From positions 166,179 through 230,178 of the forward strand of contig JBAQFI010000012.1 of the NCBI GenBank assembly GCA_049287185.1: DNA of 64,000 bases, given 5' to 3'. The DNA is from Minisyncoccia bacterium. Its GTDB lineage: Bacteria; Patescibacteriota; Minisyncoccia; Phycocordibacterales; GWA1-40-21. Below the pieces are notes generated by a model. That model had not been told where the DNA came from and made no database searches. It saw only the letters and a list, made by a program, of their open reading frames with translations. Position 1 is the first letter of the stretch, and each line of letters begins with the position of its first letter. Of the stretch, positions 27,638-62,799 are shown one piece after another. The position numbers were made by a program, and so were the translations under genes.

Positions 27638-27666
27638 TATTTTTTAATATTTAATTTGTTGTATTT

Positions 27667-27738
27667 GTCATTCCCGCGCAGGCGGGAATCCAGGTCTTTC
27701 TTTTAATTTTTCTGGATTCCCGCCTGCGCGGGAATGAC
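27667..27738. repeat. IR-A family element, canonical form: gtcattcccgcgcaggcgggaatccag - 18 bp - ctggattcccgcctgcgcgggaatgac, inside the cop operon
   Basis: perfect inverted arms each containing an 8 bp GC hairpin. Confidence 0.65.
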
Positions 27739-27764
27739 AGAGGATAATTTATAGTTAGTAATTA

Positions 27765-42319: not shown

Positions 42320-43123
42320 TTATTTTTTAATAATTTCCACAAACTTCAGCTCTAGGAGATTGACAGGGTTTTTAAAATATACATTTTGAAAAGTATCAGA
42401 AGCCTCTGACACAATTTTTTCCACCACACCAAAAACATTTAAGGAAATTGACGGTACGACCACACTATCCCCCTCTTTTAATTCTGTTTCTTTTGGTAAA
42501 CGAACAATAAAATTTCCGGAGCCAATGCCTTTAGCCTCAGCTTGAATAGAATTTGGGCCTAATAAAACATTCGTTACGGCGTTTGGCGTAGAAAATAATG
42601 ATACTTTTGAGGTTTTACTAAAAACTTCCGTCACTTCTCCCAAAACAATAGTGCCGTCAACGGAAACCAGATCCCCAACCTTAATATCAAAATTGTTTCC
42701 AGCGTCAACAATGATTTCATCATAAAAACTAATGCCTGGTTTTGACAAAACATAGGCCAATACAGACTGTTGTTTTTCATCCTTACGTCCCAAAGCTTCT
42801 TGAAGAGAAAGATTTTCTTGACGAAGAAAATCATTTACCAAAACATAATAATCAGTTTTATTTTTTGCTTCACGTAGAGCCCTATTTTCTTCAACTAATG
42901 AGCGTTTCGAAGAAAAAAGATTGGCACTATCGATTAACAAAACTTCTATAACATTTTCAAGTTTCCATAGTGGTCTACCAACCATGAAGACCAGATTACG
43001 GAAGGATGAAGAGATAAAAATAAGAATTAGAAAAATAATTACCACAGAAAAAAATATGGTTCTTTTTTTTCTCCCTCTTTTGGGCGAACTAAATGTATAA
43101 TTATTTTTTTGGTGGTAGTTCAT
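42320..43123 (-). CDS. mreC: rod shape-determining protein MreC
   Basis: TM, coiled coil, beta-rich C-domain; operon position. Confidence 0.7.
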   Translation of the reverse strand: MNYHQKNNYTFSSPKRGRKKRTIFFSVVIIFLILIFISSSFRNLVFMVGRPLWKLENVIEVLLIDSANLFSSKRSLVEENRALREAKNKTDYYVLVNDFLRQENLSLQEALGRKDEKQQSVLAYVLSKPGISFYDEIIVDAGNNFDIKVGDLVSVDGTIVLGEVTEVFSKTSKVSLFSTPNAVTNVLLGPNSIQAEAKGIGSGNFIVRLPKETELKEGDSVVVPSISLNVFGVVEKIVSEASDTFQNVYFKNPVNLLELKFVEIIKK

Positions 43124-44174
43124 CTTCGTTTTGGATCAAAACTTCATCAAAATCCGAAAGATTCTCCAGAATTATACCAGTGCCACGGGCAATGGCGGTC
43201 AACGGATCATCAGAAATAAAAACCGGAATTTTAAAGGTCTCCTTAAGTAAGGTATCTAAACCTCTAATCAATGCTCCTCCTCCAACCAAGTGAATACCTC
43301 TCTGCATAATATCAGACACAATTTCTGGCGGAGTTGTTTCCAAAACTTCTTTTACTGCTTCGACCAAGGAATCGATAGATTGCGCCATAGCCTCACGAAT
43401 ATCGGCATCTGTAATAATCACTTCTCGTGGCAGACCAGTAATTAAGTCACGTCCTTTAATAGAAGTTTCCATGGCCTCCATAGGCACAACTGACCCAATT
43501 TTAATTTTAATTTCTTCAGCCGTTTTTTCACCAATAAGAATTTTAAATTCACTACGAATGTATGCAATAACATCGTTATTAAGTTTAACGCCAGCAATAC
43601 GAAGATTTTTTGAACGAACAATTCCGCTTAAGGAAATCACAGCGATGTCTGTGGTACCACCACCGATATCTATCACCATACTGGCCACGGCTTCTTTAAC
43701 GGGTAATTTAATACCAATAGCTCCAGCCATTGGCTCCTCAACAATGTAAACCTCACGAGCGCCAGCATTTCTAGTCGCATCACGAACAGCGCGAATCTCG
43801 ACGTTTGTTACTCCAGAAGGCACACCAACGACTACTCGTGGTCCAAGTAACTTTTTAGAACCTTTTTCCGCAGTACGTAGTAAATGAGCAATCATTTCTT
43901 CGGTCACTTCGAAATCAGAAATAACACCATCAACAAGAGGACAAATAGCAGTAATATGTGGAGGTGTACGACCAAGCATTTCTTTAGCTTGGCAACCAAC
44001 AGCGACTACTCGCCCGGTCTTTTGGTTCACTGCTACAACTGATGGCTCGTTAACTACAATTCCCCTTCCCGCCATGTAAACCAAAGAATTGGCAGTACCA
44101 AGATCAATCCCAATATCATTTGAGAATCTTCTGTTTATTTTCTTTCTGATTTGATTTCTGATTTTCTTGATCAT
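43101..44174 (-). CDS. mreB: rod shape-determining protein MreB (actin-like ATPase)
   Basis: GIDLGTANSL phosphate-1, DIGGGTTD phosphate-2. Confidence 0.95.
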   Translation of the reverse strand: MIKKIRNQIRKKINRRFSNDIGIDLGTANSLVYMAGRGIVVNEPSVVAVNQKTGRVVAVGCQAKEMLGRTPPHITAICPLVDGVISDFEVTEEMIAHLLRTAEKGSKKLLGPRVVVGVPSGVTNVEIRAVRDATRNAGAREVYIVEEPMAGAIGIKLPVKEAVASMVIDIGGGTTDIAVISLSGIVRSKNLRIAGVKLNNDVIAYIRSEFKILIGEKTAEEIKIKIGSVVPMEAMETSIKGRDLITGLPREVIITDADIREAMAQSIDSLVEAVKEVLETTPPEIVSDIMQRGIHLVGGGALIRGLDTLLKETFKIPVFISDDPLTAIARGTGIILENLSDFDEVLIQNEDELPPKK

Positions 44175-48953: not shown

Positions 48954-49760
48954 TTACGCCAATCTAGGTAAAATAATCGCAATATACTCCAAAATAATCT
49001 TAAATGATGACGAGGGATCCTCTGAATAGCGGCAATTTTTTTCTAACTCTGTTAGCCATGACAGATTTTCTTTGGTCTGTTTTTTGTCTTTAACTTTTTG
49101 GAAACAAAGTTTAAGTAATTGTCGTAAAAATTCAGAAATATCCCCCCTCGAAATTTCCTCGTCAGTTCTAGCAGATAGAATTTCACCAACTATTTTTAAG
49201 CGGTCAGCGATACTGCCAGCTAAAAATTCAGATTCATTAAACAAACTGGCACCCTCTTTAAAGGCTGGAATTTCTTCATTCACATCAATAATGACTAAAC
49301 GCGATGAAACTGTCGGTAACAAACGACTTGCGGTCGGTAAAATCAAAAAAATTTTGGTATCTGCTGTCGGTTCTTCAAAAAATTTTAACAAGGAATTTTG
49401 GGCATTAATGTGAATGTCATCAGCCATAATGACTATCACTTTGTTTTTGGCTTGTACTGGAAAACTCTGAGCCGGTAAAATTATCTCTTCTAAAATAGTA
49501 TTGTAATTTGGTTTACCTTCGGGATGAAGTTTTAGTAAGTCATATTCTCGTAAAGAAAAATCCGGATGACCAGTGGTATCAAAATCTAGTTTTTCCAATA
49601 GTTCGCTCTTTAATTCAGTTAAAATAGTTTGTTTGTCCCCCACTAAACAATAAGCGTGATGAGAAAAATCACAGTTTAGTTTTGTAATATTTTTTTTCTG
49701 AGATTTTGCAGACATGGAGAGATTATAACATGAACAAATTATGTTTCTCCAGTCTGTCAT
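48954..49760 (-). CDS. holB: DNA polymerase III delta-prime-like clamp-loader subunit (degenerate P-loop, LPTVSSR sensor region); likely starts at internal Met about 49715
   Basis: AAA+ clamp loader box motifs (FEEP, T.FIL). Confidence 0.65.
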   Translation of the reverse strand: MTDWRNIICSCYNLSMSAKSQKKNITKLNCDFSHHAYCLVGDKQTILTELKSELLEKLDFDTTGHPDFSLREYDLLKLHPEGKPNYNTILEEIILPAQSFPVQAKNKVIVIMADDIHINAQNSLLKFFEEPTADTKIFLILPTASRLLPTVSSRLVIIDVNEEIPAFKEGASLFNESEFLAGSIADRLKIVGEILSARTDEEISRGDISEFLRQLLKLCFQKVKDKKQTKENLSWLTELEKNCRYSEDPSSSFKIILEYIAIILPRLA

Positions 49761-49892
49761 TCCCGCGCAGGCGGGAATCCAGAAATAATAATCAATATTA
49801 ATAAAAACTGACTTTCCGTTGTGACCTAATTTTCTTGAGCGTAGCGATTAGAAAATGGAAATGCCCTTGTGGTACGCGGGAATGACAGAGGA
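49757..49892. repeat. IR-A family element with long internal segment
   Basis: left arm perfect, right arm partial. Confidence 0.55.
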
Positions 49893-50992: not shown

Positions 50993-51079
50993 AATTTTTT
51001 AGCAATATTTGATAATCAGAGTATAGAGGTTTTTAAATAAATTTACAAGTTTGAATACATGAATGACTTTTATCTTTTA

Positions 51080-51160
51080 TCTGTCATTCCCGCGCAGGCG
51101 GGAATCCAGGATTAGATCAAAATAAAATTTCTGGATTCCCGCCTGCGCGGGAATGACAAG
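51080..51160. repeat. IR-A family element, canonical two-arm form
   Basis: near-identical to 27667-27738. Confidence 0.65.
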
Positions 51161-51790: not shown

Positions 51791-51820
51791 AAGACGCACT
51801 GAAAAGTGCGTCTTTTATTA
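51791..51820 (+). terminator. terminator aagacgcact-gaaa-agtgcgtctt + T-run
   Basis: seen directly. Confidence 0.7.
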
Positions 51821-51917
51821 TATGAGTATAAAAAAAGACGTACCCGGAGGTAACGTCTTATGAAGCATCAGTCCAAAGATAATTCGGACTGAAAAAGAAA
51901 GAACTAATCTAAAGAGT

Positions 51918-52078
51918 GGAGCTCCTTACTTATTAGGTCGACACACAGTTCAACGCCGGAATGTAATTGGTTGCAGTACAGTCTCACCCGGCTTGGTGGG
52001 ATTTCTTGTTCTCGGGACATTTTCCCCGCAAGAAATTTATCTTGACTTGCCAATACATTATTCCTAGTAAGGAGCTCC
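51918..52078. ncRNA. candidate structured RNA/TIR-bounded unit 1 (closing helix GGAGCUCCUUACU / AGUAAGGAGCUCC, 161 nt)
   Basis: 13 bp perfect terminal complementarity; no credible ORF; flanked by hairpin terminators. Confidence 0.3.
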
Positions 52079-52167
52079 GGGGCTATCATATCATCTAATA
52101 AAAAATTCGCAAATTAAAAACATACCACGTGGTATGTTTAAAAAAAGAAAGAACTAATCTGAAGAAT

Positions 52168-52373
52168 GGAGCTCTTTGTTAAAATGATCGCCGAGCCACA
52201 GGCTAATCATAAATGCATTTGGAGTTTGTATCGCCTATCCCTCTATTGGTGGGATTCTGTGGCATTGTCCCTATTGGGTAGCCATTCGCACACGAGAAAG
52301 GAATAATTCCATCCCGCGAAATAAATACGCGATTATCGGCTAGCCAAATACATTTTTCCTAACAAAGAGCTCC
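52168..52373. ncRNA. candidate structured RNA/TIR-bounded unit 2 (closing helix GGAGCUCUUUGUU / AACAAAGAGCUCC, 206 nt); 5' flank about 30 nt identical to unit 1
   Basis: compensatory change in terminal helix relative to unit 1. Confidence 0.3.
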
Positions 52374-52415
52374 AAAAAGAATACTACACCCGTAAATAAT
52401 TTTGTCAAAAATTAA

Positions 52416-52657
52416 GTAGAACTCTTCGTCGGGCACACAAACCAGATGGTTGTGATTGTGAAATCAAAATTGTGCTGGTGACATCGAGCAAATCCTCTCA
52501 TTGCCCCTAAGGAGATGCTGGATTAACAAAAGATTAACTTTCGAACCACTTCCTCCCGCGCGTCAATTGCCTTGGTGGGCCATTATCTCACCAACTAGCT
52601 GATACGACTAATGCCCGACACAACCCAAAATTTTCACTTAACCCAACGAAGAGCTAC
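52416..52657. ncRNA. candidate structured RNA/TIR-bounded unit 3 (closing helix GUAGAACUCUUCGU / ACGAAGAGCUAC, 242 nt)
   Basis: third variant of terminal helix; followed by strong terminator. Confidence 0.25.
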
Positions 52658-52687
52658 AAAGAATATTATCATCACAGGTTATTTTGT

Positions 52688-52731
52688 AAAGACATCGAGA
52701 CAGAGTGTCTCGATGTCTTTATTTTTCTTTG
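52688..52731 (+). terminator. strong terminator aaagacatcgagaca-gag-tgtctcgatgtcttt + T-run
   Basis: 15 bp stem. Confidence 0.75.
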
Positions 52732-52740
52732 TTTAATACT

Positions 52741-52770: not shown

Positions 52771-52792
52771 TCTGGCTTCTTCATAGCATATG

Positions 52793-52801
52793 TGCTATAA
52801 T
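52793..52801 (+). promoter_or_regulatory. extended -10 TGCTATAAT upstream of HTH-murA
   Basis: TGn-TATAAT. Confidence 0.4.
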
Positions 52802-52822: not shown

Positions 52823-52903
52823 AACCCACAAAAATTGACAATTCAGATTGTCATCCCCGTGAAGACGGGGATCCAGTCTTAATCAAAACTTTACCGGGTA
52901 AAA
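52823..52903. repeat. family C module termini (caacccacaaaaattgac ... tcaaaactttaccgggtaaa) with an IR-A-variant arm (52845-52878) in the middle; ends 2 nt before the murA start
   Basis: aligned against 12970-13034 and 47776-47835. Confidence 0.5.
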
Positions 52904-54417: not shown

Positions 54418-54606
54418 CTGTCATTCCCGCGCAGGTTGAAATTTGGGATGGGACCCAAATGAAAGACCTTGAGCGTTTTGTCTTCAAAATGTGAAAGGTG
54501 TACTGCTCCTGTAAGGAGAGAAATTCCAGTCCTTCTATGTTAAAACAATTTACGATTCCTAGATTCCCGCCTGCGCGGGAATGACAACACGAATAACAGG
54601 TTGAAA
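54418..54606. repeat. IR-A family element with left arm interrupted after gcgcag by about 115 bp and duplicated caggttgaaattt / tttttctgtcatt flanks (nested or rearranged copy)
   Basis: right arm intact at 54552-54580. Confidence 0.45.
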
Positions 54607-59764: not shown

Positions 59765-59836
59765 TCCGTGGTAGCTCAGTGGTAGAGCGATCGCCTGTTA
59801 AGCGATTGGTCGTAGGTTCGATCCCTACCCACGGAG
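59765..59836 (+). tRNA. tRNA-Asn (anticodon GUU)
   Basis: manual cloverleaf: acceptor TCCGTGG/CCACGGA, anticodon loop CTGTTAA, T-loop TTCGATC. Confidence 0.9.
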
Positions 59837-61378
59837 CAATGTAGGATGAGAGAGCACGAAAGTGCTCTTTTGTCTTTTATTAGCAACGTTTTTCTCTGGT
59901 TCGAAAGTATCATTAAGTACTGGTACCCAATTAGTCAAAAACTGGAAGGCTAAAGTGTAATCTGCACTTATTTCATCTGTGTTTAATGACATGTTCGAAA
60001 ATATTTTGCTGAGAAGTAATCTCTTGTCTTCTATACTGCATCTTGGACTCTTATATATCTCTTCTGCTTTTGACGCTAGTTCATGAATTGCAAAACCAAT
60101 TTCATAATACTTTGTATTTCCTTCATTTAATTTCTTGAGTAATTCAATACCATCTTCCTTATCCTTTGTGTATTCTGCAAATTTTTTATTATAGAATTCC
60201 GGTGTAATCTTTGAATCAATCTTATCTTCATAAATAGCTTCGAGACGCTTTTGTGCTAATTCAACTTGTTGATTGGCTTCCTTTTGCATTGTGACCTGAT
60301 ATTTTATTTCCCCATCATGATTACTTTTAAGTGCTTCTTCAAGAATTTTTAAAACATTTCTTGATTTTGGAGCGACTTTATCAAACAGAGGAAATATCAT
60401 TTCTTCAACTTTCTCCTGACGAAACCACTTCTTTTGACTGCATTTTCGGTAATGATTACAATGTCCATACCAATGTTCTCTTTGAATTTCCCAAGTAACT
60501 GTTCCTTTGCATTCACCACATTCTATCTTTGCTTTAAATACAGGTAGATGTTTTCGATATTGAGGAACCTTAAATTTACGCATCAATTTTTCTTTAACTT
60601 GATCGAAAAGACTTTTGGCTATTATAGGTTCATGCTTGGCTGGATAGAGATTTCCATTCCAACTCATCATGCCGTAATAGAAAGGGTCTGAAAGAAGATC
60701 ATACATTCTTGATTTCCCCACTTTTTTTCCTTCTCTATTTCTTAAACCTTTCTTATACATAAGGTCTGAAAGAGCAGGAGTTGAATAGTTACCAGTTGAA
60801 TATAACCGAAACATTTCAATTATTATTGGTTTTCTCTCCTCATCTATAACATGTATCTTATGCCCTTTATCTCCAATGGTTTTATAACCTAATGGTGGCT
60901 TGGTTGGTAACCAACCCTGAGCTATCTTCTCTTTTTGCCCCTTTTTTACTTCTTCAGATAGATTAGCTATATACTTCTTTGCAAGGACAATTTCGATGTC
61001 CCATCTAAACTTCTCGTCTGATTTTGAGTATTTATGTATTACAAGATTTTGTTTTACAAAATGAATTTGTCTTTCGCAATTTTCTTCAACCCAGTTATTT
61101 ACGTCTAAAGCTTCTTTCAAATTCCTAGTTAGTCTATCAACTTTCTCGCATAATAATACTGATATACCATTTCTTAACATATAGCTCATCATTTCTCCGA
61201 ATATCTTTCTTTGTTTAGCACCACTTGCTGATTCTGCCACTGAAAAGGTCTTATCAACTTCAAATCCCCTCCTTTCTGCGTAATCAATCAAAAGTTTTTC
61301 CTGGGCTGGTAATGAATAACCTGTTTCTTCTTGTTCTTTAGATGATACCCTACAATATGCTACTGATTTAATTTTCAT
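59825..61378 (-). CDS. large serine recombinase/integrase (resolvase catalytic domain YCRVSSKEQ, recombinase domain, Zn ribbon), 3' end abuts tRNA-Asn
   Basis: catalytic Ser motif and domain order. Confidence 0.85.
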   Translation of the reverse strand: MKIKSVAYCRVSSKEQEETGYSLPAQEKLLIDYAERRGFEVDKTFSVAESASGAKQRKIFGEMMSYMLRNGISVLLCEKVDRLTRNLKEALDVNNWVEENCERQIHFVKQNLVIHKYSKSDEKFRWDIEIVLAKKYIANLSEEVKKGQKEKIAQGWLPTKPPLGYKTIGDKGHKIHVIDEERKPIIIEMFRLYSTGNYSTPALSDLMYKKGLRNREGKKVGKSRMYDLLSDPFYYGMMSWNGNLYPAKHEPIIAKSLFDQVKEKLMRKFKVPQYRKHLPVFKAKIECGECKGTVTWEIQREHWYGHCNHYRKCSQKKWFRQEKVEEMIFPLFDKVAPKSRNVLKILEEALKSNHDGEIKYQVTMQKEANQQVELAQKRLEAIYEDKIDSKITPEFYNKKFAEYTKDKEDGIELLKKLNEGNTKYYEIGFAIHELASKAEEIYKSPRCSIEDKRLLLSKIFSNMSLNTDEISADYTLAFQFLTNWVPVLNDTFEPEKNVANKRQKSTFVLSHPTLLRG

Positions 61379-62026: not shown

Positions 62027-62799
62027 ATATTTTAGATTAATAATAAAACTGCCTACTTCTACTTAAATAGATTTAAGATTAAAACTTCATAATATTTGAA
62101 TACGAAAAAAGCCCTATTTACCTCATAGTAGGAATCTTCACAGACCTACCATGAGCTAAACAGGGTTCTTTATGTGAAGATTTTGTTATATACACAAGAC
62201 TTTGAAATAGACGTAATTCAATAGAATTCGACCTTAGAAAGCTTTAAAACTTAAATGAGCAACCGAAATATACATATTCATATTAATAAAGTAATTCTAA
62301 CATAGTCCCAAAAAGTCATCTTAATATCTGAAAGATATTAAATAAAAAATGAAAATAACCTTATAATATAGGGGTTTTCTTATAAAATGTCTGATGTAAC
62401 ACTAATTTAGTTTTGATAGTGGGGGGGGGCGTAGTTAAGTTTAACTTCCCTAGATATCCAAGAGACCCTAGGGTAACCAAACTATTTATGCTTCGGAAAA
62501 TTATTCTCAATTTCAAAATCGAGCGGTCAAAAAAATTTCTAAAATTTTCACAGAAAATAGGGTTGGCAAGGTTAAATAGAAAGGGTAGAATATAAGGGTC
62601 GGTAAAACTAAATATGTGACCTAACCTCCACAGAGTAATTTATGGAGCACGGTCTTAAATCGTAAGCCACAAACAACCTATCATTAGGGCGTGGCTTACG
62701 TTATACCGGGAAACTGGTATATGGCCGCAAGGCCTCCTAGTGGTAGGCTTTTTGTTGCTTATTTTTTAGGATTACTAATTAAAAACAAAAGAAAATTAA

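Follow-up and report, generated by a model that had tools for sequence, protein, structure and literature searches.

The window analysed here, a 64,000-nt stretch of DNA from a candidate-phyla (Paceibacteria) bacterium, carries three ORF-free units, which we call U1, U2 and U3, in the gap between mreB and murA (Table 1). All three are predicted to be transcribed from the minus strand, divergently from murA. An earlier note on this DNA had pointed to about 840 bp without a credible ORF and to three units of 161, 206 and 242 nt with complementary termini. We obtained the same unit lengths, and the longest stop-to-stop frame within 51893-52735 spans 69 codons. The ends of each unit pair in a helix, P1, formed by GGAGCUCCUUACU/AGUAAGGAGCUCC in U1, GGAGCUCUUUGUU(A)/(U)AACAAAGAGCUCC in U2 and GUAGCUCUUCGUUGGG/CCCGACGAAGAGUUCUAC in U3, the last being extended by GUAG/CUAC with a 2-nt bulge between. 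With up to three mismatches allowed, a terminal-repeat 16-mer occurs five times in the window, four of them at unit ends; the expectation from shuffled sequence is 0.44, and none of 100 shuffles reached five.

The units are also set apart by composition and folding. Their G+C content of 44-46% exceeds that of the whole window (36%) and of the spacers (23-27%), in line with the GC-richer interiors seen earlier, and their folds are more stable than those of shuffled sequences (z = -3.7 to -5.3 across the three, with -4.1 for U1 and -5.3 for U2). In U1, P1 is followed by a second helix (P2), inner hairpins and a 3' hairpin (P5). The flank of about 30 nt said to be common to U1 and U2 proved to be a 36-nt direct repeat at 92% identity.

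Table 1 Features of the mreB-murA gap, in window coordinates; promoters, tails and terminators are predicted.
Feature	Position	Strand	Details
U1 RNA body	51918..52078	-	161 nt; inverted repeat 13 bp at 100%
U1 P1 arms	51918-51930/52066-52078	-	13 bp, 100% complementary
U1 promoter (sigma-70-type)	52085..52112	-	TTGCGA-16-TATGAT, TG extension; ends 6 nt ahead of P1
U1 CCCACCAA motif	51993..52000	-	within AAAUCCCACCAAGCC; direct repeat
U1 3' tail, single-stranded	51892..51917	-	C/U-rich, ..UCUUUAGAUUAGUUCUUUCUUUUU; near-identical to U2 tail; direct repeat 36 nt, 92%
U1 downstream hairpins	51829..51892	-	hairpin 51892-51868, then terminator-like hairpin 51859-51837 and U-run
U2 RNA body	52168..52373	-	206 nt; inverted repeat 15 bp at 100%
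U2 P1 arms	52167-52181/52360-52374	-	15 bp, 100% complementary
U2 promoter (sigma-70-type)	52381..52408	-	TTGACA-16-TAGTAT; ends 7 nt ahead of P1
U2 CCCACCAA motif	52246..52253	-	loop of AUCCC/GGGAU hairpin; inside the best-conserved U2 stretch
U2 3' tail and intrinsic terminator	52108..52167	-	tail 52167-52142; stem 52139-52118 and U-run
U3 RNA body	52416..52657	-	242 nt; inverted repeat; orthologue in L001 187-423
U3 P1 arms	52422-52433/52642-52653	-	12 nt, 92% complementary
U3 P1 extension (GUAG/CUAC)	52416-52419/52654-52657	-	2-nt bulge between extension and P1
U3 promoter (sigma-70-type)	52663..52690	-	TTTACA-16-TAATAT, TG extension; ends 6 nt ahead of P1
U3 16S rRNA helix-11-like domain	52559..52618 (core 52569-52603)	-	~60 nt; most conserved part of U3
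U3 CCCACCAA motif	52572..52579	-	3' strand of helix-11-like hairpin
Intrinsic terminator outside the RNAs	52686..52722	+	overlaps U3 -35 box; absent in L001

Strand and transcription signals

The RNAs belong to the minus strand, and the sequences first written out are their reverse complements: the G·U pairs work on the minus strand alone, the consensus fold is better there and all three promoters lie on it. G·U pairs number 16 in U3 of the window and 8 in its orthologue from a close relative; read on the plus strand, these become A·C mismatches, and canonical pairing is kept at 57 of 73 and 65 of 73 pairs, respectively. The consensus fold of U3 is more stable on the minus strand (-68.6 kcal/mol) than on the plus strand (-48.9 kcal/mol). 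For U1, folding energy by itself is ambiguous, with the plus strand slightly better. Since the G·U pairs fit the minus strand only, single-stranded DNA hairpins, which the earlier note had offered alongside RNA, are disfavoured, and the RNA half of that proposal stands. Integron attC sites were rejected as well: RYYYAAC/GTTRRRY-like ends occur in U3 and not in U1 or U2, no integrase was found, and the G·U pairs, which fit one strand only, argue for RNA.

Each unit has its own predicted minus-strand promoter with at least 9 of 12 consensus matches and a 16-nt spacer, ending 6-7 nt before P1. These promoters lie outside the terminal repeats and in register with them. Shuffled sequences contain about 4 such sites per 2500 strand positions, a density from which we estimate the chance of three promoters in register with the units at about 1e-7. 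What had been taken for an array thus consists of three structured RNA units that are separate genes. A promoter-like site of the same type precedes the LOOT small RNA (sRNA), which Rfam recognizes elsewhere in the window, and murA has its own promoter and an operator-like repeat downstream of the three units.

The 3' ends differ between units. U1 and U2 have a C/U-rich tail, followed in U2 by an intrinsic terminator that adjoins the U1 -35 box and in U1 by a terminator-like hairpin that we read from the sequence by eye, an internal mismatch in its stem having caused the terminator scan to miss it. U3 has no such tail; its P1 leads directly into UUAAUUUUU on the minus strand, and the helix with this U-run may itself act as a terminator. 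Of the terminators previously proposed to bracket the array, the scan recovered the plus-strand one (52686-52722) and the minus-strand one (52139-52118, first placed at 52128-52149), and the hairpin with a T-run at 51835-51862 is present in the sequence, but they do not enclose a single array. The hairpin without a T-run reported near 51871-51893 is also there, at 51868-51892. The plus-strand terminator appears to sit, relative to the murA promoter, roughly where the terminator of an unrelated sRNA (family B, below) sits in other genomes.

The tails raise the question of whether U1 and U2 are base-pairing regulatory sRNAs, in which AGAUUAGUUCUUUCUUUUU would pair with purine-rich mRNA sites such as ribosome-binding sites and the body would serve as a stabilizer. 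Between U1 and U2, conservation is highest in the 26-nt tail, within the 36-nt repeat, and the interiors are far less alike; tandemly duplicated base-pairing sRNAs are common among bacteria; and a similar GUUCUUUC stretch, by our reading of the sequences, precedes the terminators of family B sRNAs. Against this, U3 lacks the tail, and complementary sites in the 64-kb window number 9 against 7.1 expected, with no enrichment for targets of the tail or for the complement of the CCCACCAA motif discussed below. A body of 160-240 nt under strong structural selection also exceeds the needs of a stabilizer, and in the orthologue comparison, which extends to U3 and the U2 interior and not to the U1 and U2 tails, the best-conserved stretches lie inside the bodies. 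We regard pairing through the tail as a minority possibility.

Conservation of the fold and distribution among relatives

A single orthologue of U3 was found, in a relative whose MurA is 95% identical (L001, 187-423), and the two copies of U3 share 85% identity. In the structure that RNAalifold predicts from these same two sequences, all 73 pairs are kept, with 7 double compensatory changes, 8 one-sided changes and no broken pair, even though 21 of the 35 differing columns fall inside pairs. When partners were slid by 1-3 columns, the fraction of pairing cells that were paired dropped from 100% to 39-44% and double changes from 7 to 0-2. The 5' part of the U2 interior behaves in the same way against its orthologue (28 pairs, 3 compensatory, none broken). 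Among the paralogues, P1 and P2 covary, P1 retaining its pairing through sequence changes at positions 8, 10, 11, 12 and 13, as the earlier note had described. A covariance model based on U3 matches the full length of U2 on the minus strand (E about 1e-3); it has no match to U1 or to a unit found in a further lineage (L004).

By comparison, the two genomes agree at 44% of the four-fold synonymous sites in murA and a priA-like gene, so the 85% identity of U3 indicates strong purifying selection, highest in the helix-11-like domain (93%, against 83% for the rest of U3). These figures bear out the idea that selection acts on structure rather than sequence. The transcription signals are retained as well. 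The 43-nt spacer between U3 and U2, which holds the U2 promoter, differs by 2 substitutions and 1 indel, and the U3 promoter of L001 has an identical -35 box and a -10 box of TAGTAT, with differences at about 6 of 16 spacer positions.

Coding potential does not account for this conservation. The minus-strand ORFs near the 5' ends span just 24, 6 and 9 codons, their peptides are not conserved and 1-nt indels between orthologues break the frame, so that no conserved protein-coding frame, which the earlier note had listed as a possible refutation, is present. The same observations bear on whether the units are toxin-antitoxin repeats or mRNAs of type I toxins. Loci of this kind often have 5' and 3' ends that pair over a long distance, occur as tandem duplicates and differ between strains, and the units resemble them in their closed ends, in their tandem copies at a variable intergenic spot and in sizes typical of such mRNAs. 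However, no hydrophobic peptide is encoded, and the U3 orthologue has AUA in place of the start codon. This highly improbable reading is already largely refuted.

Together, the units define what we term family A: minus-strand RNAs with a P1 whose 5' strand is pyrimidine-rich (..CUCUUYGU..), an adjoining P2 starting ..AAUG/AGUG.. and one or more 3' hairpins before the 3' strand of P1. U1, U2, U3, the U3 orthologue and the L004 unit all have this architecture, and the L001 copy of U2 fits the 5' profile in its 5' part, its 3' half lying beyond the contig end. Searches by MurA, MreB and the protein P0006 yielded no loci with units beyond L001/L002, which have U3 and part of U2, and the L004 lineage, with a single unit. 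In the closest relative, contigs end inside U2 and before reaching U1, and no orthologue of U1 was found. MurA-based scans of genome and metagenome collections detected no unit at about 160 other Paceibacteria murA loci.

Among close relatives the mreB-murA gap may be empty or hold one unit, three units or a different sRNA, indicating very fast turnover of sRNA genes at this site. The different sRNA is family B, a plus-strand RNA of L003, L170, L171 and L181; it shares no sequence similarity with family A, and the covariance model was negative on its loci. A link to the adjacent 99-aa protein was also discounted, the sole homologue (P0242) being in a locus without any unit. As for a phage or plasmid origin, database matches were confined to the 16S-like part, and the viral contigs searched lacked the two sequence patterns used as queries.

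Such variability, together with terminal inverted repeats of 12-15 bp that share sequence and element sizes of 160-240 bp, could suggest non-autonomous mobile elements (MITE-like or palindromic) in which the repeats are transposase sites and the RNA features incidental; genuine MITE-like elements do occur in related genomes. Yet the dispersal over many unrelated loci that the earlier note had named as evidence for this reading is absent from the window, from about 1.3 Mb of related loci and, for the two sequence patterns, from viral contigs. In addition, the three copies are strongly diverged inside, unlike MITE copies, no target-site duplication is seen in the flanks, conservation is far above neutral, compensatory substitutions with G·U pairs fall on one strand and the promoters sit outside the repeats in register with them. 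A mobile-element origin is therefore very unlikely. U1-U3 are instead very probably expressed, selected and structured sRNA genes of a new family.

Likeness to 16S rRNA helix 11

Part of U3 resembles ribosomal RNA. The core of its helix-11-like domain is identical to E. coli 16S rRNA positions 243-277 at 29 of 35 positions, scoring 35 against 20.1 +/- 2.1 for shuffles. When the array was searched against public records, this part was the only one with matches, which are largely to 16S rRNA genes or fragments (83-92% over 37-59 nt). One short motif, CCCACCAA, is common to U1, U2 and U3, and in the form CCCACCAA(G), conserved in all the paralogues, it corresponds to the 3' strand of helix 11. 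The complete domain is found in U3 only, U1 and U2 having 8-9 nt of it and no match to 16S or 23S rRNA, and CCCACCA is absent from the RNA strand of the L004 unit. The fold that RNAalifold gives the helix-11-like stretch is not that of helix 11; covariation does not distinguish the two folds because U3 and its orthologue hardly differ there. The helix-11-like stretch of about 60 nt in U3 thus has two alternative predicted folds, and it may bind uS17, the ribosomal protein whose binding site is helix 11 of 16S rRNA.

This likeness could also mark a degraded 16S pseudogene or other non-functional relic, and the position upstream of murA, with a plus-strand terminator ahead of the murA promoter, could mark a cis leader or antisense element of that gene. 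Both ideas have very little probability. Similarity is limited to helix 11, colinear 16S similarity in the rest of U3 being non-significant (z = 0.6), which also rejects a miniature or degraded 16S gene, and the conservation of U3 relative to synonymous sites is not that of a relic. The units lie on the strand opposite to murA, which has its own control elements, and close relatives have an intact murA without the array upstream. A cis-acting leader of a ribosomal-protein gene was likewise rejected, as the units are free-standing and adjoin no such gene; no uS17 gene or RNA-binding partner was found among the neighbouring ORFs.

We propose that the three paralogous genes give rise to stable, highly structured small RNAs, each separately transcribed from the minus strand. 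Each RNA would start at or beside the first base of P1, which would pair its 5' and 3' ends and stack on the long helix P2; P2 would enclose variable hairpins, and the 3' hairpin P5 would branch between P2 and P1. Beyond P1, U1 and U2 would continue into the single-stranded C/U-rich tail and the intrinsic terminator, and U3 into a U-run. Closing the ends in this manner could shield the RNAs against exonucleases. We infer that the RNAs act in trans as protein-binding or decoy RNAs, and a new lineage-specific family of structured sRNAs with most likely this role is, overall, the interpretation we consider probable.

The partner could be a factor that recognizes helix 11, which the RNAs would bind or titrate, or the complementary strand of nascent 16S rRNA, with which they would pair, since CCCACCAA(G) matches the 3' strand of helix 11, U3 has the whole domain and helix 11 binds uS17. 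Mimicry of helix 11 as a mechanism is nonetheless doubtful at present. More speculative still is the full version, in which trans-encoded mimics (the whole helix in U3, its 3' strand in a loop in U1 and U2) would act through uS17, an assembly factor or nascent 16S rRNA as a brake or buffer on small-subunit assembly. With so narrow a distribution, the family seems unlikely to serve the ribosome in an essential role.

Relation to known RNAs

No Rfam family (Rfam 15) matched the region at the gathering threshold, and searches at E values of up to 10 returned just snoRNA, miRNA and sRNA noise far below threshold. These results uphold the earlier claims of a candidate novel structured RNA and of no match to RNase P, SRP, tmRNA, 6S, T-box or riboswitches. 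ARAGORN found no tRNA or tmRNA, and RNase P, SRP and 6S RNA were dismissed for want of an Rfam match; GGAGGAAG resembles helix P4 of RNase P, but nothing else fits. Family A is new and very narrowly distributed, with one member containing a copy of a 16S helix. Our literature searches turned up no work on regulatory RNAs in bacteria of the candidate phyla radiation (CPR). In genomes as small and tightly packed as theirs, it is notable that three non-coding RNA genes under selection take up about 0.8 kb, and the locus offers a clean, testable case with predicted starts, a strand, a compensatory fold and a conserved motif. If the helix 11 mechanism holds, it would provide a multi-copy RNA-based brake or buffer on small-subunit assembly in a CPR bacterium with a reduced genome.

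Bacterial Y RNAs (YrlA/YrlB, Yrn1/2), bound by Ro60/Rsr, come to mind because their 5' and 3' termini pair in a long stem and their paralogues are often found next to each other (PMC4201824). These units likewise have such a stem and a modular body, lie side by side and share the size range of 100-250 nt. In both, the body resembles another stable RNA, a tRNA in Y RNAs and a 16S helix in U3. However, the units differ in having no Rfam match at E up to 10 and no conserved T-arm or D-arm: the orthologue does not retain the one T-loop-like stretch (GGUUCGAAA of U3). For Ro binding, Y RNAs carry a GNCGAA(N)G motif in their stem; among the units U3 alone has it, on the wrong (3') strand, and the L001 orthologue does not keep it. 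YrlA-like RNAs lie no more than about 4 kb from a Ro60/Rsr gene; here, Pfam searches that covered every ORF of 90 aa or more, save one, in the roughly 9 kb flanking the units on each side gave housekeeping domains or none (including MurA, MreB, RRF, deformylase and formyltransferase) and no TROVE/Ro60 domain. We consider membership among the Y RNAs most unlikely.

Other known RNAs share individual properties with the units. Like 6S RNA, they close a stem from both ends and fall in the same size range, but 6S RNA is a rod with a large central bubble, and the units fold into branched structures, with U2 lacking the 5' bubble strand, so a 6S identity was rejected. Like OmrA/OmrB, PrrF1/PrrF2, AbcR1/2 and the Sib repeats, they are adjacent paralogues with their own promoters at a variable intergenic spot; sRNAs of the OmrA/OmrB type are 80-150 nt, loosely structured and seed-based, in contrast to the multi-helix fold of 160-240 nt under structural selection seen here. 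LOOT RNA (RF03000), encoded in the same window and one of the lineage-specific structured ncRNAs that comparative genomics has brought to light in bacteria, is also a free-standing gene that is G+C-rich for its genome, with an apparent sigma-70-type promoter, a covariation-supported fold, no known partner and a CPR host. The units depart from it in matching no Rfam sequence or structure, in being three diverged tandem paralogues with closed 5'/3' ends and in occurring in few near relatives.

The ribosomal-protein leaders that mimic rRNA (S15, S8, L1 and S6:S18, among others) contain a copy of a protein-binding site of rRNA, which the helix-11-like stretch of U3 may also be, and we know of no description of a helix 11/uS17 mimic. 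Those leaders are cis-acting 5' leaders of the gene for their own protein, whereas the units are free-standing and, within the window, far from ribosomal-protein genes. If the helix 11 likeness is functional, U3 would represent a free-standing rRNA mimic and extend such mimicry beyond cis-acting leaders.

Three minus-strand units between mreB and murA

The novel structured-RNA array that the earlier note proposed at 51893-52735, without a strand, was described as three units (U1, U2 and U3; 161, 206 and 242 nt) closed by complementary termini, and the inverted repeats in the sequence bear out this architecture (table). The terminal repeat sequence has five matches in the 64-kb window against 0.44 expected, one at chance level and the others all at the units. 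G+C content is 44-46% in the units, 36% in the genome and 23-27% in the spacers, and each unit folds better than shuffled sequences. The region also proved to lack a credible ORF, as had been noted: the longest stop-to-stop frame is 69 codons, and the tiny ORFs (6-24 codons) are not kept in orthologues, which differ by 1-nt indels, leaving no conserved protein frame.

Each unit is preceded on the minus strand by a sigma-70-type promoter ending 6-7 nt ahead of the first base of its terminal helix (P1). Judged from the background density of such matches, it is very unlikely that all three would fall in register with the units by chance. The U2 terminator directly adjoins the -35 box of U1; downstream of U1 come a hairpin and then a terminator-like hairpin with a U-run; and P1 of U3 is directly followed by UUAAUUUUU (minus strand). 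U1 and U2 also have in common a C/U-rich 26-nt tail between helix and terminator. As each unit has its own promoter, the array, as read from these predicted elements, is three separate genes directed away from murA. The units are not a murA leader: murA is encoded on the other strand and is served by a promoter of its own.

Features of the array, its neighbourhood and related loci (window positions unless a locus, L, is named)
Feature	Position	Strand	Detail
U1 terminal inverted repeat	51918-51930/52066-52078		13 bp, perfect
U2 terminal inverted repeat	52167-52181/52360-52374		15 bp, perfect
U3 terminal inverted repeat	52416-52433/52642-52657		broken by 2-nt bulge
U1 promoter	52112-52085	minus	TTGCGA-16-TATGAT
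U2 promoter	52408-52381	minus	TTGACA-16-TAGTAT
U3 promoter	52690-52663	minus	TTTACA-16-TAATAT
U2 terminator	52139-52118	minus	stem, plus U-run
Hairpins downstream of U1	51892-51829	minus	
LOOT RNA	62618-62735	plus	RF03000, 73 bits
LOOT promoter-like site	62563-62591	plus	TTGGCA-17-TAGAAT
Small ORF, 43 aa	51303-51434	plus	CxxC...CxxC; Shine-Dalgarno-like sequence
Small ORF, 99 aa	51474-51773	plus	lysine-rich; Shine-Dalgarno-like sequence
Small-ORF terminator	51791-51814		
Second MreB paralogue	43101-44174	minus	357 aa; about 6 kb from array-adjacent mreB
Large serine recombinase gene	59825-61378	minus	overlaps end of tRNA gene 59765-59836
REP-like palindromes	51078-51157, 49753-49889, 54419-54586, 27665-27740, 52849-52876		GTCATTCCCGCG..GGCGGGAATCC
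MITE-like elements	L102 3382-3502, L102 598-715, L092 3654-3844, L093 5840-5969, L108 3139-3255, L131 3683-3835		105-190 bp
Family B sRNA	L003 2431-2661	plus	
Family B sRNA	L181 about 1605-1806	plus	
Family B sRNA	L170 1796-1997	minus	
Family B sRNA	L171 4704-4901	minus	
Helix-11-like match	L178 1201-1245		Shewanella phage vB_SbaS_Y11; roughly 40 nt, about 90% identical
Helix-11-like match	L180 501-537		Yersinia phage vB_YenM_30.14; roughly 40 nt, about 90% identical

Conservation of sequence and fold

The window belongs to a MAG of the Minisyncoccia/Paceibacteria (CPR). The closest relative (L001/L002; MurA 95% identical) retains all of U3, and its contig breaks off within U2, of which it covers the 5' 140-180 nt. 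At four-fold synonymous sites, murA and the next gene are only 44% identical between the two genomes, which is close to saturation, whereas U3 is 85% identical to its orthologue. The U3-U2 spacer that carries a promoter differs by two substitutions and one indel in 43 nt, and the U3 promoter keeps its hexamers with a changed spacer. This excess over neutral sites, together with the nearly unchanged promoter spacer, points to units and promoters that are functional sequences, not relics.

RNAalifold predicted 73 pairs from the two U3 sequences, resting on this one orthologue; both sides had changed in seven, one side in eight and none was broken, with 21 of 35 differing columns in pairs. When partners were slid by 1-3 columns as a control, 39-44% of cells paired, with 0-2 double changes. 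The U2 interior gave 28 pairs (3 compensatory, 0 broken), and P1 and the adjoining second long helix, P2, covary among the paralogues; the orthologue comparison covers U3 and part of U2, with U1 lacking orthologue support. A covariance model made from both U3 sequences recovered the full length of U2 on the minus strand (E about 1e-3), with no further match in the window.

The proposal that structure is under selection is thus upheld, and its two forms, RNA or single-stranded DNA hairpin, can be told apart. The window copy of U3 has 16 G·U pairs and its orthologue 8; in a plus-strand reading, the number of canonical pairs falls from 73 to 57 and 65, respectively, and the consensus fold has an energy of -68.6 kcal/mol on the minus strand versus -48.9 on the plus. 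This asymmetry and the lower minus-strand energy argue that U3 acts as an RNA transcribed from the minus strand and against the DNA hairpin. Together, these comparisons show three minus-strand units with predicted promoters and terminators, folds kept by compensatory change and strongly constrained sequence.

Distribution and neighbourhood of the array

We surveyed 160 loci from MurA-based scans of genome and metagenome collections, with a few more from look-ups via MurA, MreB and the small neighbouring protein. Beyond L001/L002, only one lineage (L004/5/6/8; MurA 84% identical) had a related unit, a single one that is likewise closed by a terminal helix of this type and has a minus-strand G·U pair and a minus-strand terminator. 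Run over about 1.3 Mb of related DNA, profiles (nhmmer) and the covariance model found no further members, and viral contigs had no match to two sequence patterns of the units. The family is rare, being limited to a few closely related CPR lineages; dispersed MITE copies, which the earlier note had raised as a counter-explanation, were found neither in the window nor in that related DNA.

In four other relatives (L003, L170, L171 and L181), the mreB-murA gap is filled by an unrelated plus-strand sRNA (family B); L175 has only the gene for the small neighbouring protein and L088 nothing. Family B is unannotated, lies on the same strand as murA and has an intrinsic terminator and a promoter (perfect TTGACA-16-TATAAT, or CTTGAC..TATAAT in L170); it matches nothing in Rfam and does not resemble U1-U3 in sequence.

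The window itself has two small ORFs between mreB and the array, ended by a terminator; among 5.8 billion proteins, the 99-aa protein has one homologue (P0242, 68% identical), at a locus without RNA units. MurA, both here and in relatives, has an HTH_3/XRE domain at its N terminus. An inverted repeat, ATAGCA-N4-TGCTAT (52783-52801), overlaps the -10 box of murA (TATAAT, 52796-52801) and is kept upstream of murA in every relative seen (L001, L003, L004, L088, L170, L171, L175 and L181); it resembles an operator through which the fused domain would regulate its own gene. REP-like palindromes are scattered between genes, often as inverted pairs, and are a source of spurious 'RGND' ORFs. Other Paceibacteria loci contain repeated copies of a MITE-like element whose terminal inverted repeats read (A)TCCCGT(T/A)(A/C)GA..; from its flanks, one L102 copy appears to lie directly after the murA ATG. 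The recombinase-tRNA overlap, about 7 kb from the array, may mark one border of an integrated element. The promoter-like site ahead of the LOOT RNA is of the same kind as those of the units.

A helix-11-like domain and possible modes of action

U3 contains AUCAGCUAGUUGGUGAGAUAAUGGCCCACCAAGGC (52603-52569, minus strand), identical at 29 of 35 positions to E. coli 16S 243-277, helix 11 (score 35; shuffles 20.1 ± 2.1), which is a contact site of ribosomal protein S17 (PMC4604426). This is the most conserved part of U3 (93% versus 83% elsewhere in U3 against the orthologue); the remainder is not colinear with 16S (z = 0.6), and U1 and U2 have no rRNA match. Each of the three units contains CCCACCAA, which is the 3' strand of helix 11; in U2 this motif forms the loop of a conserved hairpin inside the most conserved stretch.

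In phage and plasmid records, only this segment of the array had matches: 16S rRNA genes or fragments (four records checked; 83-92% over 37-59 nt) and two phage stretches in or beside ORFs. Both phage stretches read as an open frame (YQLVGEVMAHQ...), the Yersinia phage copy inside an annotated CDS. Several Lactococcus plasmids match, and the one examined contains roughly 630 nt from the 5' region of 16S (L177 about 970-1600).

U1-U3 would act as stable trans-acting RNAs, and a protein-binding or decoy role would fit their closed ends and large selected fold better than simple seed pairing. Given the motif shared by the paralogues and the full helix-11 copy in U3, their target could be a helix-11-recognising molecule such as uS17, or the complementary rRNA strand, a mechanism that we put forward as possible but rather unlikely. 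Its main rival, in which U1 and U2 would seed-pair through their C/U-rich tails, ranks roughly level in likelihood with any other single mechanism, but it accounts for neither U3 nor the selected body.

Among known RNA classes, no tRNA or tmRNA was found in the units, their predicted shapes are not 6S-like, and a Y RNA was rejected, since Pfam scans of all but one of the ORFs of at least 90 aa within about 9 kb gave no Ro60 domain and neither a Ro-binding motif nor a T-arm is conserved. The earlier impression that the units resemble no known family agrees with Rfam, in which 51893-52735 has no match, whether the gathering thresholds are applied or hits are admitted up to E = 10. From this, the compensatory changes and the constraint, U1-U3 are, at the level of sequence, a new family of bacterial structured sRNAs in tandem triplicate.
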